Positions 60 through 61,700 of a stretch of DNA of 64,000 nt are shown here, one piece after another. The notes under the pieces are model-generated. The model was not told where the DNA came from. It saw nothing but the letters and a program-made list of their open reading frames with translations, and searched no databases. Source of the DNA: an uncultured Chloroflexia bacterium (GTDB taxonomy: Bacteria; Chloroflexota; Dehalococcoidia; SM23-28-2; RBG-16-64-32); contig CAVQVC010000001.1 in NCBI GenBank assembly GCA_963717065.1, positions 2,134,978-2,198,977 of the forward strand, in the 5' to 3' direction. Every line of letters begins with the position of its first letter. Positions within the stretch are counted from its first letter, which is position 1. The translations under genes and the position numbers were made by a program.

Positions 60-1808
60 CTAGTCACCCGTACATTGTGGCCCAGGGTTACCGAACGCCC
101 GCGGCGCCGGTTGTCCACCCGGGCCATCGGGATCGAACATCGCCGGGTAGCCCGTTGCGCCGGCAATCAGCGCCGTCAGGTCCTGGAGGTTGATCCAGTT
201 CGCAAAGCCACCCGGCCCGGGAAGCAGGTCCCATCGCTTGTTGAAGTTCGCGTTTCCCGGACTCGTGTCGAACCGCCTCGGCGATGCCAGGAAGCTGGTG
301 AGATCCACCAAAGAGACCTTGTCGGTGCTGTCCGGCGTCGAGATGGAAACGAAGTCTAGCGGCCAGGAAGGACTGGGATCCGACAGGTTGCCGGCGCCGC
401 AGCGACCGACACTATTCGTGCCGATGTTGAACGCGCCTTCCGCGTAGGTACCGACCTGCGTACAGCCGTCGTTGATGAACGCGTCGGCATCGTCGTCGGC
501 CGCTCCCGTGCAGATGGACTCCGCCGGCCCCACTGCGGGGCAGCCATCGTTCACCATCGACTCACCCGAGAACGCGTCTTCGTTCGCGGACCCCGTGCAT
601 AGCGGCGTACCTGATTCAGCGGAGTCATCGAACCCGTCATTATCGTCGTCGGCATCGCTCACGTTCATCGTGCCGTCCCCGTCCATGTCGGGGTCGCACG
701 GATCTCCAAATTGATCGACGTCGACGTCCGACTGGCTCGGGTTCGAGACCGCGAAACAGTTGTCGTACACCCAGGCGTTCATGATCCCCATCACGTCGGG
801 GACCGGCGCTGTTGTGTTGTACTGTGTGTGGAGCCAGATCGTATCGCCCGGCTTTATCATGACGTTCGGCAGGCAGCCGGTCATCGACTCGATATGACCA
901 CTGTAGGATGGATTCCCCGGGTTGAGATCGATGTTGTCGGTGGGGTGAGCGCCGCTCGGAACCGGCGGCGAAGAGACCGTGGCAGGGGCAAACGTTGAGC
1001 CCATGGCGTATCCGCCGACTGCAGCGCACATTACAGGGCCCGATGTCGCGGTTGCACCCAGGGTTGCGGCCACGCTCACGCCCCAGTCATGCACGTGCCC
1101 GCCCATCATCATGATCTTCCCTTCCACGTCATCCGCCGTCTGACTCGGTACGCCGCCTGATGTCCAGCTCCAGTGGTCATCCTTGTATCCAACCGGCACC
1201 GCATACTCCGACGACCCGCAGTTTCCTTCGTCCAACCAGAGGTGTCGCATCGGCTTCAGGTTGTCGGCGCCCGGGTAGTACTTGAACGTCATCTTTAGCC
1301 GGAACGTCTTCTGGCTGGGGCTCACGTTGTGGATCATCACGTTCAGGTTCCAAAGGTAGGACGGGACGTTCGGCGGCAGGTAATAGCCATAACCCGGAAG
1401 GAAGGCAAGAGTCCCTCGCTCATCACCGGAGGCAAAGAAGCGGTCCCCCAGGCTGCCGAATTGAGTCCCGGCGCATGTGGCGTCGACGAGGGCCTGGTTG
1501 AAGATCACCATGTGGTGCAGCATCGCGCCCACGCTGTACGTTGCTTGCGTCCAGACCACTCCCGCGCCCGGGTCGCTGTCGTACTCCAGGTCGGGCGTAA
1601 CGCTTGTTATGTAGCAATCAGTACAGGGCTTCTGGACGTCGAAGTAGAGCGAACTCGGCTGGCTGAAGGCGGCCACGTCATAGTTTCCCCAGTAGACCGT
1701 CGTCGTCTGCTCGGAGGCCTCGGCCGGCGTCGCCGGGCCCTGGGTGCCCAGCACCACGAGCGCCATCGCAATCGCTCCGATAACGGAGGCCTTGATAAGC
1801 GTGCGCAT
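60..1808 (-). CDS. Secreted modular protein, paralog P1: PHM/DBH-like type-II copper monooxygenase-like N-domain + thrombospondin type-3 (TSP3) acidic repeats + conserved C-terminal module
   Basis: 582-aa ORF with signal peptide MRTLIKASVIGAIAMALVVLGTQGPATPAEA. His/Met pattern HHM(98-100), H160, HVH(238-240), M309. Acidic DxDxDG / DDDNDG repeats. C-terminal WPLDFVS..LVDLTSFLA..RWDL..INLQDLTALIA..RAFGNPGPQC is shared with ORFs 2694-4418, 50178-51797 and 51816-53294. Confidence 0.8.
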   Translation of the reverse strand: MRTLIKASVIGAIAMALVVLGTQGPATPAEASEQTTTVYWGNYDVAAFSQPSSLYFDVQKPCTDCYITSVTPDLEYDSDPGAGVVWTQATYSVGAMLHHMVIFNQALVDATCAGTQFGSLGDRFFASGDERGTLAFLPGYGYYLPPNVPSYLWNLNVMIHNVSPSQKTFRLKMTFKYYPGADNLKPMRHLWLDEGNCGSSEYAVPVGYKDDHWSWTSGGVPSQTADDVEGKIMMMGGHVHDWGVSVAATLGATATSGPVMCAAVGGYAMGSTFAPATVSSPPVPSGAHPTDNIDLNPGNPSYSGHIESMTGCLPNVMIKPGDTIWLHTQYNTTAPVPDVMGIMNAWVYDNCFAVSNPSQSDVDVDQFGDPCDPDMDGDGTMNVSDADDDNDGFDDSAESGTPLCTGSANEDAFSGESMVNDGCPAVGPAESICTGAADDDADAFINDGCTQVGTYAEGAFNIGTNSVGRCGAGNLSDPSPSWPLDFVSISTPDSTDKVSLVDLTSFLASPRRFDTSPGNANFNKRWDLLPGPGGFANWINLQDLTALIAGATGYPAMFDPDGPGGQPAPRAFGNPGPQCTGD

Positions 1809-2693: not shown

Positions 2694-4418
2694 CTATGGT
2701 GGATCCGTGCACTGTGGTCCCGGACTGCCAAATGCCCTGTTCGGCGGGCCTCCAAACATCGGCGGCGAAGCCGTCTGGCTGGCGGCGGCGATCATTGCCG
2801 TGAAATCAGTTAGCCCGATCCATGTCGGAGCGCCGCCGGGCACAAGGTCCCAACGCATATTGAAATCAACGTGCCCAGGACTCGTACCGAACTTCCGTGG
2901 CATGGCCACGAAGCTCGTAAGGTCCTGGAGCGTGATCCTGTCCTGCGTGTTGGGAGTCCCCACCGAAACGAAGTCCAGCGGCCAGGCGTTGCTGATCGCC
3001 GGGACAGCGCCCACGCCGCAACGGCCCAGCGATGCCGTCCCGACATTGAACGAACCCTCCGAATACGTCATGACCTGCGGGCAGCCGTCGTTGATGCGGC
3101 CATCCCCGTCGTTGTCGATCATGTCGATACAGTTCCCCTCCGCACCCCCCACCGCCGGGCATCCGTCATTGGTGAACATGTCATCTGAAAGGCCACTGTT
3201 GTCGTCGTTCACGGCGTTAGCGCAGAGGGGCGTCCCGGCCTCGGCCTCATCTGCAAACCCATCACCATCGTCTTCGAGGTCGCACGCGTCGCCTTGGGTG
3301 TCCCCGTCGTAGTTCTGCTGGCCGTTGTTGGGCACCGACGGACAGTTGTCGACGATATCGGCAATCCCATCGCCGTCGGTATCAGTTGTGCTACAACCGG
3401 GATCGCCGAAGTCCACAAGCGTGTCCCCATCGTTATCGACGACATCAGCGCAGTCGTCGCCGCCAGCCACGCCGTTCGTGTTGCCAGACGGCCCTTCCGT
3501 GTCGCAGGCGTTGCCGAAGGCGTCGCTGTCGGCGTTGGCCTGGGTCGGATTCGCCGTATTCGGACAGTTGTCCGTACCCGTGCAACCTGCCGGACCACCG
3601 CTCGGAGCCATCGGATTACACACGCCATCGCCGTCGCCATCGACCTGGGCGTTCGAGCAACCGTTTGAGTCGACTGCCGTGGCAGGGGGCGTCCCCGGAC
3701 AGAGGTCGTTGACGTTCAGCACGCCATCATCATCAAGGTCGTCGTCTATGACCACACCACCCTGCTGGTTGGCGTTGTTGCGGGGCATCGGGCTGCTGAC
3801 GATCTCATAGTCACCGTTGTTGCCCTCGAACCCCATGCCGCACCCCATCACGACATCGAAGCACGCCGGCTTAATTTGCAAAGCCTGGTTCATAGAAGTC
3901 GGCAGGTCACCGCTGAACACCGGTGGATAGTCCACCGTGCCCGTGTAGTTGCCCATGCCGCTGCCACCGTACGCCACCGAATCGTAATAGGCCCCGGCGC
4001 CCTGGCAGCCACCACCGCCGATCGGTCCAAACGCCACCTTGCCGTCCGGGGCCATGATGCCTGTCGGCATGATGAAGTCTGGGGAGCCGGCCGACCAGGC
4101 CGCGTCGAAAGCTGACGTCCCGATCAGTATCGAGGCGGCTGTTGCCCCGTTCGACATTGGCCCGGTAGAGAGGGTATAGGTTCCCGTTTCCGTTCCGCTG
4201 GCGTTGAAGAAGTGCAGCTGCGAGCCAGTGGTGAACACCTGCCCGCCGATCGACATTCGCAGTTCAACATACTGGATGCTGGTGTCGCCGCTGAGGCCGC
4301 CCATGACCCCATATACGCGCATACAGTGGATAGCGCCGAAGGCTGGTTGACTGTTTCCCAGCACACCCAGCAAAGAGACTACTACGGCAAGGACAGCGAG
4401 CAGTCCAAAGCTCTTCAA
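2694..4418 (-). CDS. Secreted modular protein, paralog P2: LTD-like N-domain + canonical TSP3 repeats + conserved C-terminal module
   Basis: 574-aa ORF with signal peptide MKSFGLLAVLAVVVSLLGVLGNSQPAFGA. N-domain IQYVELR..ILIGTSAF..APDGKVAF..YDSVAYGG. TSP3 repeats DNCPNTANPTQANADSDAFGNACD and DNCPSVPNNGQQNYDGDTQGDACD. C-terminal [48 protein letters not shown]. Confidence 0.85.
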   Translation of the reverse strand: MKSFGLLAVLAVVVSLLGVLGNSQPAFGAIHCMRVYGVMGGLSGDTSIQYVELRMSIGGQVFTTGSQLHFFNASGTETGTYTLSTGPMSNGATAASILIGTSAFDAAWSAGSPDFIMPTGIMAPDGKVAFGPIGGGGCQGAGAYYDSVAYGGSGMGNYTGTVDYPPVFSGDLPTSMNQALQIKPACFDVVMGCGMGFEGNNGDYEIVSSPMPRNNANQQGGVVIDDDLDDDGVLNVNDLCPGTPPATAVDSNGCSNAQVDGDGDGVCNPMAPSGGPAGCTGTDNCPNTANPTQANADSDAFGNACDTEGPSGNTNGVAGGDDCADVVDNDGDTLVDFGDPGCSTTDTDGDGIADIVDNCPSVPNNGQQNYDGDTQGDACDLEDDGDGFADEAEAGTPLCANAVNDDNSGLSDDMFTNDGCPAVGGAEGNCIDMIDNDGDGRINDGCPQVMTYSEGSFNVGTASLGRCGVGAVPAISNAWPLDFVSVGTPNTQDRITLQDLTSFVAMPRKFGTSPGHVDFNMRWDLVPGGAPTWIGLTDFTAMIAAASQTASPPMFGGPPNRAFGSPGPQCTDPP

Positions 4419-4478
4419 GCGGCACCCCCTTGGCTCACGGTTAAGCCGTTCCCCTCAACGGCCGGGCCGATGCACCGA

Positions 4479-4506
4479 ATTATATGGTCGGCGCGAAGTT
4501 TGTCAA
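4479..4506 (-). promoter_or_regulatory. Near-consensus sigma70-type promoter (TTGACA-N16-TATAAT) for the P2-LTD-P1 operon
   Basis: The minus strand reads ttgacaaacttcgcgccgaccatataat, about 60 nt upstream of the P2 start codon. It sits in a lower-GC intergenic gap. Confidence 0.55.
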
Positions 4507-4573
4507 CTGATGTACGAACGAAACTGCGTTTTGGCTCTCAACAAAGTGGAGAATTTTCTTCCAAGTTTGCGCC

Positions 4574-5104
4574 TCAGGCGAAACCCATCTCTATCTCGTG
4601 GGCCGGAATGAACTTCCGCCACCCCTCCTGGGACTCCAGGTACGGGTAGAAGCTCCTGAAGAAGCTGTACGTCGGGCGATATGGCTCCTTCGGTAGGTGC
4701 ATGTGTGCCTCGGTTGGTGTCCGCCCCGCCTTGCTGTGGTTGCACGGCTTGCAGGCCGCGACAACGTTCTCCCAGCTGTGGCCCCCGCCGCGGTGGCGCG
4801 GCAGCACGTGGTCCAGCGTCAGGTCACGCGTCTGCTTCCCGCAGTACTGGCAGGTGAAGCGGTCCCGGAGGAAGACGTCGCGCCTGGTGAGCCGTCCCTG
4901 GGGACGAGGGCGCCGGATGAGGTAGATCAGCCGGATTACCGAGGGGATCTCGAAAATGGCGGTTGAGCTGTGCAAGTATCCGCGGCCGTTTTCAATGGTT
5001 TCCGCCTTACCGCGGTCAAGCAGGACGAATGCCCTGCGTACATTACATACGTTCAGGGGCTCGTAGTTCTGGTTCAGTACTAGTACAGGTAGAGCTGGCC
5101 CCAA
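4574..5104 (-). CDS. HNH endonuclease family protein
   Basis: 176-aa ORF with CQYCGKQTRDLTLDHVLPRHRGGGHSWENVVAACKPCNHSKAGR (Cys pairs plus H-N-H core). The N-terminal VLVLNQNYEPLNV region is typical of this small HNH family. Confidence 0.85.
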   Translation of the reverse strand: MGPALPVLVLNQNYEPLNVCNVRRAFVLLDRGKAETIENGRGYLHSSTAIFEIPSVIRLIYLIRRPRPQGRLTRRDVFLRDRFTCQYCGKQTRDLTLDHVLPRHRGGGHSWENVVAACKPCNHSKAGRTPTEAHMHLPKEPYRPTYSFFRSFYPYLESQEGWRKFIPAHEIEMGFA

Positions 5105-5203
5105 TTTGCATCACCACGTAGGCCCATACTAGCAGAGCGGTTATAACCCCTGCAATCCTGACATTTGCTCGCTGGTTGACCGTTATGGATTGCCAGTTGA
5201 CGA

Positions 5204-5707
5204 CTAGGAACCGAGAAACGCGCTCACACGATCGTCGAAGTCGCTGGGAAGCAGTGTGAGTACGAAATCGACATCATCGATAAACAGCGGCGCCAGCACT
5301 GAACCGTGCACCGCGTTGTCCAGACCCAATCCGGGATACGCAGCGAAGACAAGAAGCAGCACTTCCACAAGGATCAGCCCCTTAAGGAACCCGAAGAAGG
5401 CTCCTCCCACGTGGTCCACCCACCCCAACTGGATCAGCGACACACCCTTCTTCAGCATGTACGCGATGATCTGGCCCATCAGCACAACGGACCCCAGCAG
5501 CACAAGGAACGACACCGCGAGCGCCGCATCATCGTCACCGATGAAGACCAGCACCTCTTTCTCGAAGTCCTGATACAGCAGCCCCGCGACGATGACGCCG
5601 ACGATCAGCGCCAGAAACGTGATCACTTCACGTATCAGCCCCGCCGAGTAGGCGGTGATCACGAAGCTAACGACCACCGCTATGATCAGAAAGTCCAGCC
5701 AGTTCAA
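5204..5707 (-). CDS. cvpA: CvpA family membrane protein
   Basis: 167-aa ORF. MNWLDFLIIAVVVSFVITAYSAGLIREVITFLALIVGVIVAGLLY plus further TM helices match the CvpA/colicin V production protein architecture. Confidence 0.75.
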   Translation of the reverse strand: MNWLDFLIIAVVVSFVITAYSAGLIREVITFLALIVGVIVAGLLYQDFEKEVLVFIGDDDAALAVSFLVLLGSVVLMGQIIAYMLKKGVSLIQLGWVDHVGGAFFGFLKGLILVEVLLLVFAAYPGLGLDNAVHGSVLAPLFIDDVDFVLTLLPSDFDDRVSAFLGS

Positions 5708-5796
5708 GCGCCGGCCCGAATCAAGTGCGCGTGGCTGGTTGCCGCCGAGATGCTTCGTGGCGCTTCGCGGCGATGCGGGGGTCCATGCCCCCTATC

Positions 5797-6819
5797 TTAT
5801 TGCAGGCGCAGCTTTGTCCACACCGGCAGGTGGTTCGACAGCTCGCCCCAAATGTCCTTGCTCCCAATGCCGCCGCCCAGAAGAGTCACCCCTCGCCCGA
5901 CGATCAGGTCGATTGCCACGCCGGACCGTGTCGTGACCCGGTCCTCAACTGGAAGTGCCGCGTGCGCATCGACGTAGCCGCGCTGGATCAGCGCCTGCGT
6001 TACGGGATCATCGCTCGTTTCAGCGCGAAGGTCATCGATGTAGCGCACGCAGTTCAGGTCTCCGCCCGCGATAACGCCGAACGGCTGTCGTAGTCCGTCC
6101 TCCGCTACCTCCGCCGATTGCGCAGACCGATATTCGTCTTCTTGCCGGGACTCCAGGTGCAGAGAATACAGGTGAAGGTACCGCTCTCCAATCTTCACAT
6201 CGGCCGCCAGCGCCATCCGGCCGCCCATCCGGGGCTCGCCCACCCTCAGCAGTCGCTGCCACCACGAGTACCAGCTCAGGTTCTTCTCGTGCCGGATAAG
6301 CCGCACATTCCCCAGGGGATACCGCGACAGAACAGCATTCCCGTGCTCGCAGCGGGAGCTCAGCCTGCCGCCGCCGGGACCCCAAAACCTTGGCAGTTCG
6401 ATGAACTCGACGCCGTAGACGTAGCACATACCCAGAGCCTTCGCGTATTCGCGTACCACGCTGCCCCAGCCACTTCTCTCGCATCCACGGTCCACCTCAT
6501 TCAACAGGAGGACGTCCGGATCCGGTATCGACGGGTCGCTCGAGAGCATCTCGATCTGCTCGGCCGCCCGCAGTCCCCGCTCGACGTTGTACGCGAGCAC
6601 CGTAATCTCGTCCTGAGGGGCGGCTTCGGCGGCGAACGATTCACCTTCGATCGTACAGTCGATCCGGACCCGGTCCGGGACCGGTGACGCGCAGAGCCTG
6701 TCCCGGCGCGGGTCGGGCGGGTCTGGTTGCCACGGGAACTCTACGAACTCGTATGCCATCACTCTTGCCATCGCCGATTGTACGCCAGAGCCCGCTCGCT
6801 TCCGCCTTAGGCCGAGCAC
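5797..6819 (-). CDS. Endonuclease/exonuclease/phosphatase (EEP) family protein (start uncertain; internal Met at about 6771 is plausible)
   Basis: 340-aa ORF with VLAYNVERG..LLLNEVD..GNAVLSRYPL..GGDLN..SNHLPVW, the EEP catalytic motif series. Confidence 0.75.
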   Translation of the reverse strand: MLGLRRKRAGSGVQSAMARVMAYEFVEFPWQPDPPDPRRDRLCASPVPDRVRIDCTIEGESFAAEAAPQDEITVLAYNVERGLRAAEQIEMLSSDPSIPDPDVLLLNEVDRGCERSGWGSVVREYAKALGMCYVYGVEFIELPRFWGPGGGRLSSRCEHGNAVLSRYPLGNVRLIRHEKNLSWYSWWQRLLRVGEPRMGGRMALAADVKIGERYLHLYSLHLESRQEDEYRSAQSAEVAEDGLRQPFGVIAGGDLNCVRYIDDLRAETSDDPVTQALIQRGYVDAHAALPVEDRVTTRSGVAIDLIVGRGVTLLGGGIGSKDIWGELSNHLPVWTKLRLQ

Positions 6820-6835
6820 CCTCTATCCTGAAGTC

Positions 6836-7663
6836 GTGGAAGACGTCCTCCGAGCCATTGTCCTGGGCATCGTACAGGGCCTCACGGAGTTTCTTCCCAT
6901 CTCGTCCTCCGGTCACCTCATTCTCACGCGCGAGCTTCTCGGCTGGGACTTCGCCGACGACCTCACTTTCGACGTGGCCATCCACATGGGCACCCTCGCC
7001 GCCGTCCTTGTGTACTTCTGGAACGAATGGGTGCTCATGGCCCGAGGCGCACTGAATTGGATCGGAGGGGACCGCGAGCCCCACGTCGGTCAGCCCTACG
7101 ACGCCCGCCTGCTGGGGATCATTCTGGTCGGGTCGATCCCCGTCGGCATCCTCGGTTTCGCTCTCGACTCCCTGGCGGAAGACAAGGTACGGACGTTGGG
7201 GGTATTCGGGGTCGCGATGATCATCGGTGCTCTCGTTCTCTGGGCGGCGGAAAGGTACGCGAAACACCTCCGGAAGATAGAGGACGCCAACGTGCGAGAT
7301 GGACTCATCGTTGGCAGCGCGCAGGCCCTCGCTCTGTTCCCCGGCGTCTCCCGTTCCGGCGCCACGATATCGGCCAGCCTGTTCGATGGCTTCGACCGGC
7401 GCGACGCGGCACGTTTTTCTTTCATACTGTCGACTCCGGCCATCGCCGGCGCCGGGCTCTACAAGGGCGCCCAGGCCATCACCGAGGGGCTCCCCTCGAG
7501 TGAGATACCGGCAATCATCGCGGGCACGATCACGGCCGGTATCGTCGGCTGGCTGGCGATTAGCTTCCTCTTGCGCTTTCTCCAGACACGCACCTACCTC
7601 CCATTCGTCGTCTACCGTCTCGTCGTCGGCGCGCTCGTCCTCGCCATCATCTTCGTGAACTGA
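6836..7663 (+). CDS. uppP: Undecaprenyl-diphosphate phosphatase
   Basis: 275-aa ORF (GTG start) with GIVQGLTEFLPISSSGHLIL and PGVSRSGATI, the BacA/UppP signature motifs. Multiple TM helices. Confidence 0.9.
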   Translation: MEDVLRAIVLGIVQGLTEFLPISSSGHLILTRELLGWDFADDLTFDVAIHMGTLAAVLVYFWNEWVLMARGALNWIGGDREPHVGQPYDARLLGIILVGSIPVGILGFALDSLAEDKVRTLGVFGVAMIIGALVLWAAERYAKHLRKIEDANVRDGLIVGSAQALALFPGVSRSGATISASLFDGFDRRDAARFSFILSTPAIAGAGLYKGAQAITEGLPSSEIPAIIAGTITAGIVGWLAISFLLRFLQTRTYLPFVVYRLVVGALVLAIIFVN

Positions 7664-34886: not shown

Positions 34887-36860
34887 ATGGACATTCCAAC
34901 GATATTCCTGTCATGGAGGAAGCTGACCACCTCATTTTTTATCGTTGCCGCGTTCATTGCTATCGCGTTCATTGCTATCTTTTGGAGCGAAGAAACCGCG
35001 AGCGCCGCAATCGAGCGAACCTACACCCTGCCGTTCTACGAGAACTCACCAATCACTTGCCCCTGGGGTCCCTATGAAAACTGTGGACTCGTAGGTCAGC
35101 ACAATGGCACCGACTACTCGGTTGGAAACAACACCACCGCCGGCGACAAAGTGGCCGCAGCCCTAGCAGGCACCGTTGGGCTGTACACTGACTTCGATCC
35201 GTTCAACGGTCTGGGATGCGGCTACTACGTGGTCATCGATCATGTCAACGGGCACAAATCGCGGTACTGCCATTTGACCAGCTGGGCGGTTTCGAACGGT
35301 CAAGCCGTCGGACGCGGGCAACTGATCGGCTTTGAAGGCAGTTCCGGTGCAACGGGCGTGAACCTTCACTTCGATGCGCGGGTGGATGCGTCCCCGGGGA
35401 ACTGTTGCAGTGGGACTTCAGTCGATCCATATGGCGGACCATACTCACCTAGTACATACCTCTGGAGTACGAACCCGCCCTCCTACCACTTGGCTGGCGC
35501 CGTGGTCAACATGCTGCGCAACGCCTCTGGCGAGCAAGCCAGTATTTTCCCCTGGAGCGAGACCGGAGCGGCTGACGCTTTCATCTGGAACTCTCCATCC
35601 CCTCTCAGCGGGAGCAAGTTCGTGCGAACAGGCGGCGGCGCCAGCGGGGGCTCTGTATACCAGGACGTGGTGACGAGTACGCCGAACGACGCGTATTACC
35701 TCTTCTCTCTGTGGGCACGGATGTCCTTGGGGTGCTCACCGGTCGACCTGAAGGTTTGGGGCCTGGGTGGGTCGGCCGGAGATGAGAGCTATTTAACTCA
35801 CCTCAATACGTTGTGCACCAACTGGACTTACGTGAGTGTCCCAGGAGATTTCGCGTACGCGCACAACCGGGTTCGCGTCGAGGTGTATATCGGCGCGAAC
35901 AAAACGATCGACATCGACGCAACGGAGCTGGTGCCCACCAAGAATATGAACGCTTCGTTCGAACATCCGGGTAAGGCGGGTAACGGTACCCCGTACTGGA
36001 ACAAGATTGACGGCACCACGGGCTGGTCCTTCCTTACGAGCCCGGGCCCGAAGAGCGGCGCTCGGTTCATGCGCGCGCAGAGAACAGTTCCGGCTGGGCC
36101 GTCCGACTCCAAGATATGGGACGACATACCCGTGGTACCGGTATCCGGAGAGAGTTATACGTTCTCGGTCTGGCTTCGCGCCGTATCGCCTACGGTGACG
36201 GGACTGATCAGGATCCACACGCTCGGCCCAACCTACGAGAAAACCGAGACCTGGTTTACTCTCAACAGCACCGCCTGGAAGGAGTGGTCGGCTACGCTTG
36301 AGCCGGTGGCTGTAGGGCATACCGGTCTCCGGATCGAAATCTACTTCTTCAATCAGGGTTCATACGACATAGACGGCACACAGGTCGTACAAAACCTTCT
36401 CGCGCGTTCGTCGTTCGAATCCGGCGCGACTCCGGAGTGGGGTGCGTTTGAGGACATCGACCCTGACCCGAACACGACGACGTACCTGAATGTCATCCAG
36501 CCAGTCGGTGGCGCCCGCGATGGACTCAAGCATCTGCAGATGAGCACGAACACGCCGAATGGCTCCGTGTTTCAAGACATTCCGAGAACTGCTCTGGTAA
36601 ACCAGAGCTACGATTTCGTGATCTGGGTCCGCTGCGTGAATATCTGCCCGGTGACCGGTTCCGTCAAACTCGTTGCTATGCCGAGTGAAGCAAGCATCAC
36701 GACGTTCAGCGCAAGCGCCGTGTGGACTCCCGTTGTCGCGACAATTGACGTCTCATCAGGCGGATTCCCGTTACGCGCTCAGATCCATATGAGTCAAACC
36801 GGGCGCAACTATGACGTGGACGCGACTGGGAACTCGATCGGCATCGCGCCAAGCTACTGA
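34887..36860 (+). CDS. M23 family metallopeptidase fused to three CBM4_9-like jelly-roll repeats
   Basis: 657-aa ORF with N-terminal TM, M23 motifs HNGTDY..VIDHVNGHKSRYCHL..GSSGATGVNLHFD, then three ~150-aa repeats. Each repeat starts N(M/L)xxxxSFE-like and contains VYQD/IWDD/VFQD..Y.F.(L/V)W(A/L/V)R..ID(I/V)DAT. Confidence 0.85.
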   Translation: MDIPTIFLSWRKLTTSFFIVAAFIAIAFIAIFWSEETASAAIERTYTLPFYENSPITCPWGPYENCGLVGQHNGTDYSVGNNTTAGDKVAAALAGTVGLYTDFDPFNGLGCGYYVVIDHVNGHKSRYCHLTSWAVSNGQAVGRGQLIGFEGSSGATGVNLHFDARVDASPGNCCSGTSVDPYGGPYSPSTYLWSTNPPSYHLAGAVVNMLRNASGEQASIFPWSETGAADAFIWNSPSPLSGSKFVRTGGGASGGSVYQDVVTSTPNDAYYLFSLWARMSLGCSPVDLKVWGLGGSAGDESYLTHLNTLCTNWTYVSVPGDFAYAHNRVRVEVYIGANKTIDIDATELVPTKNMNASFEHPGKAGNGTPYWNKIDGTTGWSFLTSPGPKSGARFMRAQRTVPAGPSDSKIWDDIPVVPVSGESYTFSVWLRAVSPTVTGLIRIHTLGPTYEKTETWFTLNSTAWKEWSATLEPVAVGHTGLRIEIYFFNQGSYDIDGTQVVQNLLARSSFESGATPEWGAFEDIDPDPNTTTYLNVIQPVGGARDGLKHLQMSTNTPNGSVFQDIPRTALVNQSYDFVIWVRCVNICPVTGSVKLVAMPSEASITTFSASAVWTPVVATIDVSSGGFPLRAQIHMSQTGRNYDVDATGNSIGIAPSY

Positions 36861-36890: not shown

Positions 36891-38253
36891 GTGATACGCG
36901 AAGAGCTCGTCCCCTCCGAAGACTGCATCTTCTCCTGGATCGAGGAAGTTTACCGCCACGGCGCCCGCCGTCCCGGCTACCCCGCGGACCGCTGGGCCGA
37001 GGAGTGGGCCGCGGAGCAGTTCCGCGCGTTCGGCCTCGAGAACGTGCGGGCGGAGCCGGTGCCGCTCTGGTACTGGGAGGACCGCTCGGCGTCGCTGATC
37101 GTCGAGGGAGGCGGCGGGACGCTCGACGTCCCCTGTTTCGCGCTGCCGCACTCGACGCCGGCCGACCGTCTCGAGGCCGGCCTGGTCGCCTGGGACTCGG
37201 GCGAGCCTGGCGCGGTGAAGGGCGCGATGGCGCTGTACGGCGTCCAGCTCAACCGGCCGCCCCACGGGGTGCTGGCGCGGCTGGCCACGTGGGCCTACGA
37301 CCCGGACGGCACCTACGAGAATTCGGCGCACGCCCTGCCGTTCGCGCGGGAGATGATGCACGTCGTCGAGCCGGCGATCGAGGCTGGGGCGGCGGCGTTC
37401 ATCGGGACGCTCAGCGGCTACCCGGGCAACTCGTACCACTACTACGTCCCCTACGACGCGGTCGAGCGGCCGATCCCCGGCGTCTGGATCAGCGGCAGCG
37501 ATGGCGCGCGCCTGTGCGAGATGCTCGCCGCCGGCCCCTGCACAGCCCGCCTGCGCGTCGACGCCGTCCGCGAGCAGATCACCTGCTACAACATCGTCGG
37601 CGAGCTTCCCGGCGCGGACGACGAGACCGTGATCATCGGCTCGCACCACGACGGGCCCTGGGCCTCCGCCGTCGAGGACGGCTCCGGAATCGCGCTCGTG
37701 CTTGCGCAGGCGGCGTACTGGTCGCGCGTGCCGCGAGAGGAGCGCCCGCACCGGCTCGTCTTCCTGCTGAACGCCGGGCACATGGCGGGCGGCGCCGGCC
37801 AGGCCACTTTCGTCGAGACGCATCGAGATGAGCTCGACCGCTGCGTCCTCGAGGTGCACCTGGAACACGCCGCCGCCGAGTTCAGCGACGAAGACGGCGA
37901 GCTGCGCGCCACCGGCCTCCCCGAGTCCCGCTGGTGGTTCACCACCCGCCTCGCCGCGCTCGAAGCCACCGTGCGCGGCGCCATCGAGGCCGAGGACCTG
38001 CGCCGCTCGCTGATCCTGCCGCCCACCGCCTTCGGCCCCAAGCCCACGACCGACGGCGCCGACTTCCACCTCGCCGGCGTCCCCCTCGTCCACTTCCTCG
38101 CCGCGCCCTGGTACCTCTTCGACGCGGCGGATACGCTGGACAAGATCCACCGCGCGAAGCCTCGTCCCAATCACCCGCGCCGCCGTCCGGATCATCGAAT
38201 CCACTCGCGGCGTCTCTGCCGCCGCCATGCGCGCGGACGCCGTTCCCGCATGA
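36891..38253 (+). pseudogene. M28-family (aminopeptidase-like) peptidase, one frameshift near the 3-prime end (about 38157)
   Basis: NIVGELPGADDETVIIGSHHDGPWASAVEDGSGIALVL..HLEH.. is in frame up to DKIHRA. Then SLVPITRAAVRIIESTRGVSAAAMRADAVPA* follows in another frame (an extra a in gcg-a-agc-ctc). The stop overlaps the next ATG (ATGA). Confidence 0.75.
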
Positions 38254-38731
38254 CCGCCGACCCCTACGCGCGCCTCCGCGAGATCTGCCTCGCCTTCCCC
38301 GAGGCCGTCGAGAAGCCGTTCGGCGGCCACACCAATCCGGCGTTTCGCGTCCACGAGAAGATCTTCTGCGGGACGATGGAGGGAGACGGACGTCCCTCGG
38401 TCACGCTGAAAGCGCCGCCCGGCGCCCAGGAGTTCTTCGTCGGGCAGGACCCGGAGCGCTTCTTCCGCCCCGCTTACGTCGGCCCGAAAGGGTGGCTGGG
38501 CATCCGCATCGACACCCCGTCGACTGGGACCAGCTCGCCGCGATGATCGACGAGAGCTACCGCATGACCGCCCCGAAGAAGCTGGTGGCGCTGCTGGACG
38601 GGCACTCCTCCTGGCTGACCCGATTCCCGATCGTTGATCACCGATTTCGTCTTCGTTCGATTACATGGAGCCACATCCGAGCACGGGGCTTGACGTCGGT
38701 GTATCGATTGGCGATCCCGGGCCTGTCGTAG
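38250..38731 (+). pseudogene. MmcQ/YjbR family DNA-binding protein, frameshift at about 38512; 3-prime end uncertain
   Basis: MTADPYARLREICLAFPEAVEKPFGGHTNPAFRVHEKIFCG..RPAYVGPKGWLGIRID is followed by PVDWDQLAAMIDESYRMTAPKKLVALLD in another frame. The tail after LLD may contain a further indel. Confidence 0.55.
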
Positions 38732-50177: not shown

Positions 50178-51797
50178 TCATGGCCACGGGCACGTCGGGC
50201 CCGGGCTGCCGAAGGCCCTAGCGCCGCCCAGCATCGGCGGCGTACCGGTCGTCGCCCCTGCCGCGATCAGCGACGTGAAGTCGTTCAGGTTGATCCACTC
50301 GTTGTATGTTCCCTTCCCCGGGTGGAAGTCCCAGCGCGAGCTGAAGTCCGGGTGCCCCGGGCTCGTCCCGAAGCGCCTCGGCCCCGCCAGGAAGCTCGTC
50401 AGGTCCTGCAGCGTGATGGTTTCCTGGCTAATACCCGGGGCCGCATACACGTTCGAGGGCCAGCCATCGGGACCGCAGGGGTCCTGGTCCGGCGTCCCAA
50501 TCTTGAACTGCGCCTCGGAGTACATCCCCATCTGCACGGGGCCGCCCGGGCAGCCATCGTCCGTCACTGCATCATCCGGCGGCCCGAAGATCGAGCCGTC
50601 GTCGTTCAGCCCGTTGCCGCAGAGCAGCGTGCCCGCCTCCCGCGCGCCGGTGTAGCCGTCGCCGTCGCAGTCGAAGGCTTCGGCGCCGGGCGGCAGCGCC
50701 TCGTCGATCTGCACGTCGCCGTCGTCGCTGACGCCCGCAAACACGCCGTCGATACGTTCTGGTCGACGGGTGGAATTCATCGGATTCCCACCGCACGGCG
50801 TCTCATCGGCGTCGGCCACCCCATCGTTGTCGTCGTCGTTGTCGCAGACGTCCCCCATCGCATCGCTGTCGTGGTTGAGCTGATTGCTGTTGGGTATCGT
50901 GGGGCAGTTGTCCACCGAATCTGGGATCCCGTCTCCGTCGGTATCAACGTAGGATGGGCAGGCCTGGTTTACGGCCATCGTCCCGGACAGTGTCAGCAGG
51001 GGCATCCATGCCGCCATCGTGACATCTATGTGGGTGTTGTTGGTTAGATTAATCGGGTGCAGCCCTGTGCCGATTTCAACGCCGGGACTGGTCACGTTCA
51101 GCCTGAACAGCGGGCCGTCTCCCCATTCATGGCCGGAGAAGGAGGCGTCGGCGCCGTTCGCGGAGAAGACGCCGTCACTGTCGCCGTTGGCGTCACCGGC
51201 GTTGGTCGGCGCGCTGGAGCCTTCCTGGCCCATCAGCATGTTGGCATAGCCTGCGCTAAAGCCGGCGATGACGCCGCCGGGGTTTGGATAGCTGAGGTTT
51301 GCCCCGTAGGCCATGGCTCGATAGGCCTGAGGAATGTCGTCGGCCACAACGTCGACGGTGATCGAGTCTACCGCCTCTTCGTCGGCGTCGATGATGTTGC
51401 CGGTGTTCGTGTTCATCCGCGCGCAGGGCTCGATCGTACCGATGACACCGACTGCCGGACACCCGTCGTCCGGAACCGTATCCGCGTCCTCATCTATGGA
51501 GTTACCCATCCCGTTCGCAGCGCACTCGCCCGCGCTGAACGACTCGAACGGGTCAAAGCTCATCGGGAACGCAGGTTTCGTGAAGTTCGTGGGCGCGAAC
51601 GGCCCCACCGGCGCGCCGTCCTCCGGGTCCATGTCGACGGCCATCAGCGCCATGCCGCCGGGCGGCTGTGCCTGCGCCGACGGTTGACCATCGAACGAAG
51701 CGACCGCGACCAACAACAGGCCCACCAGCGCAGCGGCGCCAAGGCCGAACGTTCGTCGGGTGTTTATCGTTCTCAACGCTGCCTTCATTGCACTCAT
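50178..51797 (-). CDS. Secreted modular protein, paralog P3: cohesin-like N-domain + TSP3 repeats + conserved C-terminal module
   Basis: 539-aa ORF with signal peptide ([27 protein letters not shown]). N-domain [83 protein letters not shown]-terminal [42 protein letters not shown]. Confidence 0.85.
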
Positions 51798-51815: not shown

Positions 51816-53294
51816 CTACGGCCAGGGGCACGATTGGCCGAACGCCCGGATGCCGCCGAGCATCGGCGGGGCGCCGGTGTACGCTTCGCTGGCGACGATG
51901 GACGTGAAGTCGAGGATGTTGATCCAGTCGACAAGGACGGTCGTGCCCGGGTAGATGTCCCAGCGCATGTCGTAGGCATCGGGCCCGTCGACAGACTCGG
52001 TGTCGCCGGGGCTGGTGCCCAGCCTGCGGGGAGTTGCGATGAAGCTCGTCAGGTCCTGGAGGGTGATCGAGTTCTCGCTCCCCGGCCCCCGATAGACGTT
52101 CGTGGGCCAGTCATCGCCGCAGGGGTCCTGCTCCTCGGTGCCAATGCGGAAATCCGCCTCGGACCAGTCGCCGACCTGCGGCGGGCCGCCCGGGCAGCCG
52201 TCGTTCACGACTACGTCGTCCGGAGGGCCGTAGATCATGAAGTCGTCGTTGGTGCTGTTGTCGCAGAGGTACGAGCCGGATTCCCACTGGTTGTCGTAGC
52301 CGTCGCCGTCGCAGTCGTACCGCTCGGAGTCCGGTGGAGACGGCTCGTCTATCTGCGTATCGCCGTTGTCGTCCGCGCCGGCGAAGACGCCGTCGATGCG
52401 CTCGGGTCTCGAGAGGGCGCTCCAGCGGTCGGAAGAGCACCAGGCCTCGTCGTAGTCGAACAGGCCATCGTTGTCGTCGTCCTTGTCGCAGGCGTCGCCC
52501 TGCGAGTCGCCGTCGTTGTTGGCCTGCGTAGGATTGGCGTTGACGGGACAGTTGTCGCACGCGTCACCGGGCGGATCGGTGTCGCCGTTGGCCTGGGCGG
52601 GGTTGGCGACCGTGGGGCAGTTGTCGGCGGCGTTGGATATGCCGTCTGCGTCGAGGTCGTTGTCGCAGGCGACGGTATCGATAGAAATAGAAGCAGAGTT
52701 GACCGTGACCGCCGCGTGCGCGACGCCGTTGACATCGATGTGGGCGGCGTTCAGCAACGTTAGCGGGAACTCCCCGGGAGTTACGGGTGGCACGGTCGAT
52801 ACCTCGAGGCGGTCGAGCACTCCGGAGCCGCTCTCGCCCGGCGATGGGCCGGTATCACTGATATCGGCTGCGAACGTACCATCCGCATCGGGCAGGCCAT
52901 CGCTGGCGCTCGAAATGATCGATCCCGGGGTGGCCGCCAGCAGATAGCCGGTGTCCTGGGAAACGACTTGCAGGGACGGCGCCGGATAGGTCAGCTCGTA
53001 GCCATACCCGGCGATCGAAGTCGAGGAGGGGATGTTCGTCGCCGTGATGTCGAGGGTGAGCGTGTCAACAGCATCCTCATCAGCGTCCGCGATGTCGTTC
53101 TCGTTGATGGCTGCGCAGAATTCAGGACTCCCAAGGGAGGAGCCACCGTTTGCGGGAGTCATCTCCGGGTGCAAGTCAATGGACATGGCGCCCATCCCGC
53201 CGGGAGCCTGGGCGTTCGCGGGAGGTTGCGCGCCGACACAAACGAATGCGAGGAGGGCGGCGACGAGAATAGCGATGAGGAAGCGGTAGATCAC
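51816..53294 (-). CDS. Secreted modular protein, paralog P4: cohesin-like N-domain + TSP3 repeats + conserved C-terminal module
   Basis: 492-aa ORF with signal peptide (FLIAILVAALLAFVCVGAQPPANAQA). DTLTLDITATNIPSSTSIAGYGYELTYPAPSLQVVS..GSGVLDRLEVST. DNCPTVANPAQANGDTDPPGDACDNCPVNANPTQANNDGDSQGDACD. C-terminal [39 protein letters not shown]. Confidence 0.85.
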   Translation of the reverse strand: MIYRFLIAILVAALLAFVCVGAQPPANAQAPGGMGAMSIDLHPEMTPANGGSSLGSPEFCAAINENDIADADEDAVDTLTLDITATNIPSSTSIAGYGYELTYPAPSLQVVSQDTGYLLAATPGSIISSASDGLPDADGTFAADISDTGPSPGESGSGVLDRLEVSTVPPVTPGEFPLTLLNAAHIDVNGVAHAAVTVNSASISIDTVACDNDLDADGISNAADNCPTVANPAQANGDTDPPGDACDNCPVNANPTQANNDGDSQGDACDKDDDNDGLFDYDEAWCSSDRWSALSRPERIDGVFAGADDNGDTQIDEPSPPDSERYDCDGDGYDNQWESGSYLCDNSTNDDFMIYGPPDDVVVNDGCPGGPPQVGDWSEADFRIGTEEQDPCGDDWPTNVYRGPGSENSITLQDLTSFIATPRRLGTSPGDTESVDGPDAYDMRWDIYPGTTVLVDWINILDFTSIVASEAYTGAPPMLGGIRAFGQSCPWP

Positions 53295-58761: not shown

Positions 58762-61700
58762 CTAGGCCCACTCCACAGCCCAGATCTCGTGCTTACCCGA
58801 TAGCCCCTTGAGTTCCACCGTTCTGGACTCGCCCCAGGAAACGTCAGAACCGGCCACCAGCGCCTTCACCACGCTCGAAGACAGGATCTCACCACCGTGT
58901 GCCTGCGAGGCGACACGCGCCGCCATGATGACGTTGCGTCCGAAGAAATCTTCGCCTTCCTTAATCACCTCGCCAGCGTGGAGACCCACCCTCACTTGCA
59001 CCGGCTCCTCGGCGCTGCCGTTTCGCGCGACCAGTGAATTCTGAATCGCAGATGCGCAGGCGAGCGCCTTCGCGGCCGACTGGAAGGCGACCATGAACCC
59101 GTCACCCTCGCTCTTCACCTCGAAGCCGGCGTTGGCCTTGATCTGCTCGCGGACGATCGCGTTGTGCTCCCTCAGAACCTCCATGAACTTCGCGTCCCCC
59201 AGGCGGTCGGCCATCGCGGTGGATCCCTCGATGTCGCTGAACATTATCGTGACGGTGCCATCCGGTGCCGCGTGGGGCTTGAGATCCGGCTGCTCAGCCA
59301 GCGCCTCTCGCGCCACGGTGTCGATGGAAGTCCCGATATCGCTGAGATCAATCCCCTGCGCCTTTACCTTCAGCTTGAGTGCCTGCTCGACGTCCCATTT
59401 CATCCCGATCTCCTGGAAGATGTCGAGCGCTTCCGAGAGTAGGCGGATCGCGCGCTCCTTGTCGCCGGGTCCGCCGCGGGCGAGCAGCATTCGGGCGTGG
59501 TCAGACTGCGTTCGCCCGACATAGGGTCGCGCACCGATGCGCGTGTTCATCTCCAGCGCCTCCTGGAACAACTCCTCAGCCTCATCCCAGCGTTCGAGCG
59601 TGGCGGCGAGCATGCCCAGCGGCCGCGCTGCCGAGCCGTCACATATGATCCCGTTGCCAATAACGATGTTCCGGTGGCGGTAAGGCGCAAGCATCTCGTG
59701 CAGTGTGGCCGCCCGCGCTCTATCCCCGAAGAACTCAGCGATGGTGGCCAGACGGTTCATCGCAGTCGCCCATCCAAAGTCCTGGGGCACGGCAGTGAAA
59801 TTCTCGGCTGCCAGTCGCTCAAAGATTTCCAGGCACTCCGCTTCCCGACCGGAGACGAGGTAACAGAGCGACAGGGCGGGCAACCAGGCGGCGATTTCCG
59901 GATTCTCATCTACCACGCGCTTGATCATCGGCTCCATGTCGCCCGCACGGCCCTGCTGTAGACGGATGTTGAACAGTTGCACCGCGAACGCCTGTAGTCC
60001 GAACTGAATCTGCTGGCGCTGCGAGTGCGCGAATGCCCGCTGGGATTCCTGCTCACCGTCGGCGAGCCGGCCGGACATGATGTGCCTCATCGCCGCCCAG
60101 AACGGCTTGTAGCCGAGGTAGAACATCTCACGGACCTCTTCGGCCAGTTGCACAACCCTCGCGATCGCCTCGTCGGCCTCCTCAATATCACCAAGTTCAA
60201 GCGAGTTGGTGACAATCGCGTCAAGCGACGCGATCTGTAACCTCTTGTCGCCGGACTGTTCTGCCAGACGGGCAAGATCTCTGGCGATGCTAGCGCGCTC
60301 TTCAGTATTTTGTGGCCCTCCGAGGAGGAACAAGAGAGCTGATAGCGCCTCACCCTCCATCTGCGGCTCGCCAAGCCGCCGTGCCATTTCAGCCGATTCG
60401 CGGCCTGCCTCGATGAATTCCGCCCAGTCCGCTCCAGGAGTACTTCGCCGCGCCAGGGCAGTGAGCAGCCTGCAACGCAACCCGCTGTCCCCTTCTTCGA
60501 CGATCGCCAGGGCGTGCTCCACCTCCGTCCTTCCCTCGCCTGTCATTTGAACAGAACCGCGAGTGGCGGCGTTTGCATACGTCAGAGCCATTTCACCAAT
60601 CAGCTCCGGGTCTGCGAGATCCTTGGCGAGCGACACCCCGGGTCGCAGGTTATCAAGTGCCCGGTCTGCTTCACCCGCCCTCACCAGAGACCACGCTTGC
60701 AACATGAGTAGATCGCAACGGAGCCCGCCGTCTGGCTGCGCTCGCAGGTCGAGCGCCTGGAGGGCAAGCGTATATTGCTCCGCCGCTTCTTCGTGCGCTA
60801 GCTGCGCCGTCGCCCGGTCTCCCGCGCGCCGCGCATAACCTATCGCCTTGTCGACATCGCCTCCGGGGGCGGCCTGGAAGAAGTGGTGCGCAAGCTCGGC
60901 CAGGTGCGGATCTTCGTTGTCGGCGTACAGCCGTTCCAGCGCCTCGCCGATCTGCCGGTGCATCAATACGCGCCGCGGCGTGCTCAGCTCGTCGTACAGC
61001 GTCTGCCGGATCAGGGCGTGGGTGAAGTCGTAAATCCCGGCCTGGTCGCCCTTGCGCTCCTGGAGCAGCTGCGCCCCCAGCGCCTCATCGAGCAGGTCGA
61101 GGAGCTTTGCCTCGTGGACGTCGCTCACCGCCTTCAAAACGTCCCACGTGAAGCCGCCGGTTATCGTGGACACAACTGTGAGGATGCGGTTGCATTCGTC
61201 GCTAAGCCGGGAGAGGCGCCTTCCGATTACCTCGCGCACCCCTTCCGGGATGCCAAGTTCGGAGATGTCGGTAATGCCGCCCGCGGTCCAGCGCCCGTTC
61301 TCGTCGCGGAACAGCCTGCCTTCTTCCACCAGGTGGCTGAGCACCTCGCGCACGAAGAAGGGGTTGCCCTCTGTCTCGCGGGAGAGGGCGGCGGCAAGCA
61401 ACCGCCTTCCCGCCTCGGTCTGCTCGTCCGTCTCTTGCTCCGAGACCGCTCCGAGCAGCGCGACGATGTCATCGACCGGCAGGCCGCGCAGGAGGACGCG
61501 GTGGTACACGGGTTCCCGCCTGAGGGTTGAGAGCACCTCCGCCAACGGGTGTGTTCGCTCCAGTTCGACGTCACGGTAGGCGCCAAGGATCAGCACGCGG
61601 TCGCTTCGCAGGCCGCGTACGAGGTACTGCAGCAGCAGCAACGACGGCTTGTCGGCCCAGTGCAGGTCGTCGAGGACAAGCACGATCGGGTTAGCCGCCG

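Follow-up and report, generated by a model that had tools for sequence, protein, structure and literature searches.

The textbook examples of non-coupled binuclear copper monooxygenases are PHM (peptidylglycine alpha-hydroxylating monooxygenase) and DBH (dopamine beta-hydroxylase), both known almost exclusively from animals. In plants, the Nod19 mRNA of common bean (family SURNod19, 'stress up-regulated Nod 19', PF07712) is a validated target of miR398; its level, like that of Cu/Zn superoxide dismutase CSD1, falls when copper is deficient and rises when copper is in excess (PMC3882225). Here, a gene at positions 60-1808 of the minus (-) strand, in a 64,000-nucleotide stretch of DNA from an uncultured Chloroflexia bacterium (contig CAVQVC010000001.1; the whole stretch is called the window below), is compared with these systems. 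Its product fits best as a secreted bacterial protein of the Nod19 family, with a PHM/DBH-type core, two putative His2-Met/His sites and a tail that probably tethers it. By analogy, this Nod19-type protein with its PHM/DBH-fold head is plausibly a copper redox enzyme, a reading to which we give a probability of roughly 0.6. It should not be filed as PHM, because it fails the Pfam PHM/DBH definition and is without the substrate-binding residues of PHM, but it plausibly works like one.

Fold and family of the head domain

The protein is made up, in this order, of a signal peptide, a Nod19-type head with the predicted PHM/DBH fold, a thrombospondin type-3 (TSP3) repeat and a C-terminal module. 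Its N-terminus looks like a Sec-type signal peptide, so the protein is probably secreted. An AlphaFold2 model of residues 31-354, built on an alignment of 46 sequences, is all-beta, with a mean pLDDT of 89.3 and a pTM of 0.88, and is poor only at the loop around residues 280-300. The top 24 PDB matches of this model in Foldseek were human DBH (4zel, E = 8.5e-9) and 23 PHM chains (E = 4.8e-8 to 7e-6), all with a probability of 1.00 and 331-363 aligned columns (about 345) that cover both subdomains. Other proteins, namely double-jelly-roll capsid proteins and PNGases, appeared only from E ~1e-4 or worse. Because the top 24 matches are all DBH or PHM, with both subdomains covered, and the others begin only at E ~1e-4, the assignment of residues ~33-348 to a two-subdomain beta-sandwich of the PHM/DBH type is solid at the level of the predicted structure. 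The initial annotation, made by a model from the sequence, had placed a secreted, PHM/DBH-like copper monooxygenase signature fused to TSP3 repeats and a further module at positions 759-1706. This interval corresponds to residues 35-350, that is, to the head domain; the PHM-type fold is borne out by the 24 chains, and the signal peptide and the tail are both present. The parts of the protein and the residues discussed below are as follows.

60-1808, (-) strand: whole gene, 582 amino acids (open reading frame list and translation)
1713-1808, (-) strand: apparent Sec-type signal peptide, residues 1 to about 32 (MRTLIK, a hydrophobic core, then AEA-SEQ), read off the translation
1254-1706, (-) strand: N-subdomain of the head, residues about 35-185, predicted counterpart of the PHM CuH subdomain (AlphaFold2, Foldseek, hhalign)
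1512-1517, (-) strand: H98-H99, counterpart of PHM H107-H108 (conservation and hhalign)
1329-1337, (-) strand: M158-I-H160 on a cleft-facing strand, where either M158 or H160 may serve as third ligand of the first site, in the place of PHM H172
765-1253, (-) strand: C-subdomain of the head, residues about 186-348, predicted counterpart of the PHM CuM subdomain (AlphaFold2, Foldseek)
1089-1097, (-) strand: H238-V-H240, counterpart of PHM H242-x-H244 (conservation and hhalign to the HTH motif)
789-791, (-) strand: M340 (PDVMGI), probable counterpart of the CuM ligand PHM M314 (conservation and hhalign)
882-884, (-) strand: M309 (HIESMTGC), probably a cleft-loop residue beside the likely C261-C312 disulfide
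654-764, (-) strand: a single probable TSP3 repeat of the calcium-binding type, residues 349-385 (COMP 3fby in phmmer)
63-653, (-) strand: Asp-rich linker with two NDGC motifs, then the C-terminal module

PNGases share the fold and appear in the Foldseek list, and the protein is extracellular with adhesion-type repeats, so a metal-free protein with the PHM/PNGase F fold, such as a glycan-binding module or PNGase-like amidase, has to be weighed. It is very improbable: the PNGase matches (7zgn, E = 6.4e-4; 9lwg, E = 1.8e-3) are 4-5 orders of magnitude weaker than those to DBH and PHM, and family-wide conservation falls precisely on the positions that hold His/His and His-x-His/Met in the copper enzymes. 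PF07712 itself presumably belongs to the PHM/PNGase F clan of Pfam.

The Foldseek TM-scores are low (0.30-0.58), as would be expected for hinged two-domain proteins. The best values were obtained with chain A of 4zel (0.58) and with 6ala, the H108A mutant of PHM with citrate (0.54 and 0.50), whereas the other listed DBH and PHM chains scored 0.30-0.47. Chain A of 4zel and 6ala are closed conformers, in which the copper sites are 4-5 Å apart or merged (PMC4846438, PMC6123673). The best fit of the model to closed conformers argues against a simple open PHM geometry, and it is what favors a closed redox enzyme outside the non-coupled PHM type, in which H98/H99 and H238/H240 would share one copper or a coupled binuclear centre 4-5 Å apart and perform oxidase-type chemistry. 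However, TM-scores say little about the state of a hinge when the model is a predicted apo form, the closed crystals are interpreted as intermediates of copper loading with a single copper, and a complete second set of ligands (M340, M/H160) is conserved, which agrees with two separate sites; such a closed enzyme is therefore unlikely.

With the head (residues 31-354) as the query, 64 relatives were found in a set of 5.8 billion proteins, the closest of which are metagenomic and 47-59% identical. Two sets were used for comparison: 46 aligned relatives, and 113 more distant ones, no two of which exceed 50% identity. The head of the window protein matches its relatives with E-values of 1e-25 to 1e-105, including P0024 (2.5e-43) and P0013 (1.7e-75), which score 44.9 and 27.6 bits against PF07712. 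The former is the highest PF07712 score among the first 46 relatives. In all, 39 of the 46 relatives (E <= 10) and 76 of the 113 (E <= 1e-3) match PF07712, with a best E-value of 6.9e-15, and the matches always fall in the C-terminal half of the profile (positions ~208-377), in the C-subdomain of the head. Because the head is homologous to relatives that pass the PF07712 threshold, it is, by sequence, a member of the Nod19 family. SURNod19 is the nearest catalogued family, and it was absent from the interpretation in the initial annotation.

An exhaustive profile search showed the family to comprise at least 2,956 clusters at 50% identity, counted by their representatives at E <= 1e-3 (1,628 at E <= 1e-10). 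In species-representative genomes the members are mostly from Actinomycetota (Solirubrobacterales, Acidimicrobiia, Jiangellaceae and Kribbella), and further hosts are Chloroflexota/Dehalococcoidia, some Pseudomonadota (Microbulbifer), one Saccharibacteria metagenome-assembled genome and ascomycete fungi. Among genome loci the nearest is L001, of an uncultured member of the Dehalococcoidia; its protein is 56% identical to that of the window, which makes this lineage the probable source of the window. Plant and fungal SURNod19/MtN19 proteins have a homologous head, and plant NOD19, like the window protein, has a signal peptide (PMC10326430); however, the plant protein ends in a hydrophobic helix, and the window protein in the TSP3 repeat and C-terminal module. 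None of the literature searched links Nod19 or MtN19 to PHM or DBH, and a search seeded with P0200, the fungal-type fusion described below, returned fungal relatives only and no plant Nod19.

Two fusions suggest what the redox partners of the domain may be, with one example each among the 113 members. In P0064 the Nod19-like domain is followed by a C-terminal cupredoxin of the plastocyanin/azurin type (26.8 bits). In P0200 it is followed by a transmembrane module of the ferric-reductase type, together with FAD and NAD(P)H domains, an arrangement that recalls the transmembrane electron supply to PHM and DBH. In many family members (P0071-P0088 and similar proteins), an N-terminal extension of 230-300 amino acids precedes the Nod19-like domain. 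This extension had no Pfam match in the four proteins scanned (P0071, P0074, P0077 and P0081) and looks like an uncharacterised partner domain.

Metal-ligand positions and possible chemistry

The head was compared with PHM by hhalign, using a PHM family alignment of 36 sequences and a rat PHM core sequence checked against the PDB chains. The Nod19-like alignment (A1) and the PHM alignment are colinear over 201 columns (probability 69%, E = 4.3e-5), and the N-subdomain alone against the PHM N-subdomain reaches 82% (E = 1.1e-5). In every run H98/H99 stand opposite PHM H107/H108. H238/H240 stand opposite H242/H244 (the HTH motif of PHM), and the LPxGYGY strand (LPGYGY) stands opposite LPKGVGF. 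PHM H172 falls opposite M158 or H160, as the register shifts by two residues between runs; both are on the polar face of the predicted strand 153-161, the opposite face of which carries W153, L155, V157 and I159. In the low-probability run with the C-subdomain alone, P-D-V-M340-G comes opposite S-D-E-M314-C of PHM, after the strands GDTIWLHTQYN and GDILAARCVFT have been paired, whereas M309 is aligned by hhalign with PHM residues 272-273, in a cleft loop.

Conservation among the relatives follows the same positions. H98, H99, H238, H240, M309 and M340 are invariant in the 46 relatives, as are C62, C112, C197, D109, R123, E130, R131, W191, D193, W215 and Y330. Among the 113 distant relatives, H98 and H99 are each kept in 110, H238 and H240 each in 112, M340 in 111 and M309 in 92. 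The His ligand positions and M340 are also kept in the ascomycete members; in the 12 fungal sequences aligned, the M309 position is Ile or Leu in six, and the M340 equivalent is Met in nearly all. Column 160 is Met in 27 and His in 11 of the 46, and Met in 94 and His in eight of the 113; in column 158, 109 of the 113 have E, D, H or M. The metal-ligand positions are thus conserved at the sequence level, with a family signature of HH, [EDH]-x-M, H-x-H and D-x-M-G-I, and on the strand of the third ligand the window protein carries M-I-H, a less common variant. The cysteines of the head are C62, C65, C112, C197, C261 and C312; the last two, each present in 44 of the 46 relatives, suggest a separate disulfide between them. 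The C-subdomain also contains a variable, low-confidence loop at residues ~270-300.

The ligand pattern proposed in the initial annotation was HHM at residues 98-100, H160, H238-x-H240 and M309, with gaps of 61, 78 and 69 residues. All of these residues and gaps were found in the translation, and the retention of the four histidines in 110-112 of the 113 distant relatives shows that the pattern is not due to chance. The claim that it mirrors the CuH and CuM sites of PHM survives in part: H98/H99 and H238/H240 pair with copper ligands, but M309 and H160 were probably mis-assigned. M309 was rejected as the CuM methionine in favor of M340, which aligns with M314 and is more widely conserved (111 against 92 of the 113). 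M309 is probably no equivalent of M314, and the similarity of its gap to that of PHM (69 against 70 residues) is a coincidence. The scarcity of His in column 160 does not agree with H160 as a conserved ligand, and the Met of the HHM context is conserved in only 26 of the 46 relatives. In short, the observation was real but partly mis-assigned, and its interpretation was right on the fold and on most of the ligands.

By analogy with PHM and DBH, a mechanism can be proposed for the head. The cleft between the subdomains would carry two sites of two histidines plus a thioether (or His), matching CuH and CuM of PHM: the first would be formed by H98, H99 and either H160 or M158, and the second by H238, H240 and M340. 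The head would bind copper, and electrons from an external donor would activate O2 at the HxH...M site, after which an extracellular substrate would be oxidised or hydroxylated. This substrate is probably not a glycine-extended peptide: R240, N316 and Y318, which bind the carboxylate in PHM, correspond to G236, I342 and N344 in the window protein, and column 344 is hydrophobic across the 113 relatives, so a peptidylglycine substrate is not expected. The same replacements leave the proposal of oxidative chemistry on peptides or amines without any pointer to such substrates. Attachment of the enzyme to the cell surface, or to a protein assembly, would be the most likely task of the TSP3 repeat and of the C-terminal module that three other secreted proteins of the window also carry.

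The methionines invite a different explanation, that of a non-catalytic copper-binding protein whose sites would bind Cu(I) outside the cell to sequester it, buffer it or pass it on, for copper tolerance or acquisition. The sites are rich in Met (M96, M100, M158, M233-235, M309 and M340), and such sites, together with the Met found family-wide as third ligand, are typical of Cu(I)-handling proteins. The plant Nod19 transcripts follow copper supply (PMC3882225), and the ferric/cupric-reductase-like fusion of P0200 would also fit reduction of copper followed by its capture. However, the whole two-subdomain core of PHM/DBH is kept, including the HxH...M triad that activates O2 and the architecture of the cleft, and the cupredoxin fusion points to electron transfer into the domain. 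Copper-resistance genes were not found flanking the gene here or in 80 related loci. Such a non-catalytic role therefore seems a minor, though real, possibility, and a copper redox enzyme of the PHM/DBH type is preferred.

The likeness to PHM and DBH (copper type II ascorbate-dependent monooxygenases, PF01082 + PF03712; 1PHM, 4ZEL) consists in the two-subdomain beta-sandwich core, HH and HxH on equivalent strands, a Met that opens the last strand (M340 for M314), the LPxG[YV]G[YF] strand, and a secreted or extracytoplasmic location. Against it, and against the enzymatic reading as a whole, stand a number of results. Identity is only ~10-13%, and the Pfam search suggested as a check gave no Cu2_monooxygen (PF01082) or Cu2_monoox_C (PF03712) match to the protein (E <= 1) or to the 46 relatives (E <= 10). 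Searching the PDB with the sequence or a profile gave no match for the head, no NCBIfam model covers it, and PF07712 is not hit by the window protein, even at E <= 10 (gathering threshold, 25 bits). The hhalign probabilities are moderate: 25% for a larger alignment (A3), lower than the 69% of A1; 32% against the single PHM sequence, with a local match around the HH motif only; and 2% for the C-subdomain alone, although that alignment is still colinear. The third ligand of the first site is ambiguous between M158 and H160 and, unlike in PHM, is usually Met in the Nod19 family. The disulfide pattern of PHM is not kept, nor are the carboxylate-binding residues; the C-subdomain has a long variable loop; and the window protein is bacterial, is without DOMON or PAL domains and resembles the closed conformers in its model. 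Among the 80 genome loci, no conserved neighbour points to a substrate or electron donor; spurious antisense open reading frames and an ABC ATPase (13 loci) were the only recurrent ones. To our knowledge, no member of the Nod19 family has been demonstrated to bind copper. The function of the Nod19 protein was stated to be unknown in papers of 2022 and 2023 (PMC9632046, PMC10326430).

The C-terminal tail and the neighbouring genes

The scans of the protein with Pfam and NCBIfam gave TSP3-type matches alone, and that to Pfam TSP_3 (20.7 bits) is under the cut-off of 25. With phmmer against PDB sequences, residues 349-385 match COMP (3fby, E = 4.7e-9), and the other matches are only to type-3 repeats of thrombospondin and COMP. 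Residues 349-385 are probably one TSP3 repeat. The initial annotation, in referring to TSP3 repeats, was correct about the type but not about the number: only a single canonical copy is apparent, followed by an Asp-rich stretch. A repeat of the form NDGCPAxG...E..C, inserted in the variable loop of the Nod19 C-subdomain, was also seen in the relative P0166 (residues ~262-313). Because the same repeat is found in the tail of the window protein and inside this loop, it behaves as a mobile mini-module.

The C-terminal module, of ~110 amino acids, contains the motifs WPLD, VSLVDLTSF, RWDLLPG, INLQDLTAL and RAFG.PGP.C. It is shared with the (-) strand open reading frames 2694-4418, 50178-51797 and 51816-53294 at 30-51% identity (BLASTP), and 13 metagenomic relatives have it too. 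Searches of Pfam and the PDB gave no match, and the AlphaFold2 model of the module is unusable (pLDDT 42). The module includes two repeated segments of the form IN-L-x-DL-T-x-L, each a predicted short helix. In the close relative P0004 a genuine Dockerin_1 domain, as in dockerin-bearing surface proteins, sits where the window protein has this module. The module was nevertheless not accepted as a dockerin: no match to Dockerin (PF00404) was found in 16 copies, and hhalign against the P0004 dockerin gave 1.4%, colinear but not significant.

The three open reading frames that share the module encode secreted proteins with TSP3 repeats and different heads, and two of them (50178-51797 and 51816-53294) stand in tandem on the (-) strand. 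The head of 51816-53294 has a weak, sub-threshold Cohesin (PF00963) match (E = 5.5e-4, 20.6 bits). This match, with the dockerin of P0004, provides a sequence-based lead to a surface assembly that may be of the cohesin-dockerin kind.

The genes upstream of the Nod19-type gene, and the candidate promoter, are as follows.

1822-2610, (-) strand: lamin-tail-domain (LTD) protein, the upstream gene of the probable transcription unit (Pfam LTD, 36.2 bits)
2694-4418, (-) strand: first gene of the unit, a paralogue with a head without assignment, TSP3 repeats and the same C-terminal module (BLASTP, tail 51% identical, E = 5e-68)
4479-4506, (-) strand: sigma-70 consensus TTGACA, 16-nucleotide spacer, TATAAT (12/12), candidate promoter of the three-gene unit, ~60 nucleotides upstream of 2694-4418

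The start of the Nod19-type gene lies 13 nucleotides past the stop of the LTD gene, and an AGGGG motif of the Shine-Dalgarno type lies ~8 nucleotides 5' of its ATG. Because 2694-4418, 1822-2610 and 60-1808 are co-oriented and closely spaced, and because genes for the same kind of paralogue, the LTD protein and the Nod19-like protein occur in the same order at positions 3239-7563 of locus L001, in a Dehalococcoidia metagenome-assembled genome, the three are probably a conserved operon of secreted proteins. The consensus scan gave one 12/12 site, where shuffled sequence gave a mean of 1.0, so that the promoter is a pattern match only. A perfect sigma-70 consensus is unusual in DNA of 63% G+C.

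Elsewhere in the window, 58762-63297 (-) encodes a multidomain signalling protein of 1,511 amino acids that combines a double zinc ribbon with a Ser/Thr kinase, an AAA_16 ATPase, TPR and an adenylate/guanylate cyclase domain. The genes for an HNH endonuclease (4574-5104, (-) strand), a secreted M23 peptidase with CBM4_9 (34887-36860, (+) strand) and an M28 peptidase fused to YjbR (36891-38546, (+) strand) look ordinary, and no link between them and the Nod19-type gene was seen.

Meaning for the PHM/DBH class and for Nod19

A wider reading can be offered tentatively, at somewhat less than even odds. The Nod19 family would be a very large unrecognised branch of PHM/DBH, spread over Actinomycetota, Chloroflexota, some Pseudomonadota and ascomycetes and, through PF07712, plants; both of its copper sites would be His2-Met, and its electron donors would be cupredoxins or NOX/FRE-type reductases rather than ascorbate. 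The window protein would then be a member displayed at the surface by its TSP3 repeat and a dockerin-like module, beside cohesin-like paralogues.

If this is true, thousands of bacterial and fungal members would widen both the chemistry and the range of organisms of the PHM/DBH enzyme class, as they differ from PHM in having Met for the third His, no peptide-binding residues and, occasionally, built-in redox partners. The window protein, which by its sequence should be soluble, secreted and separable from its tail, would be a convenient test case. A characterised member would give the first biochemical handle on plant Nod19/MtN19, the stress- and copper-responsive genes that have been followed for decades.

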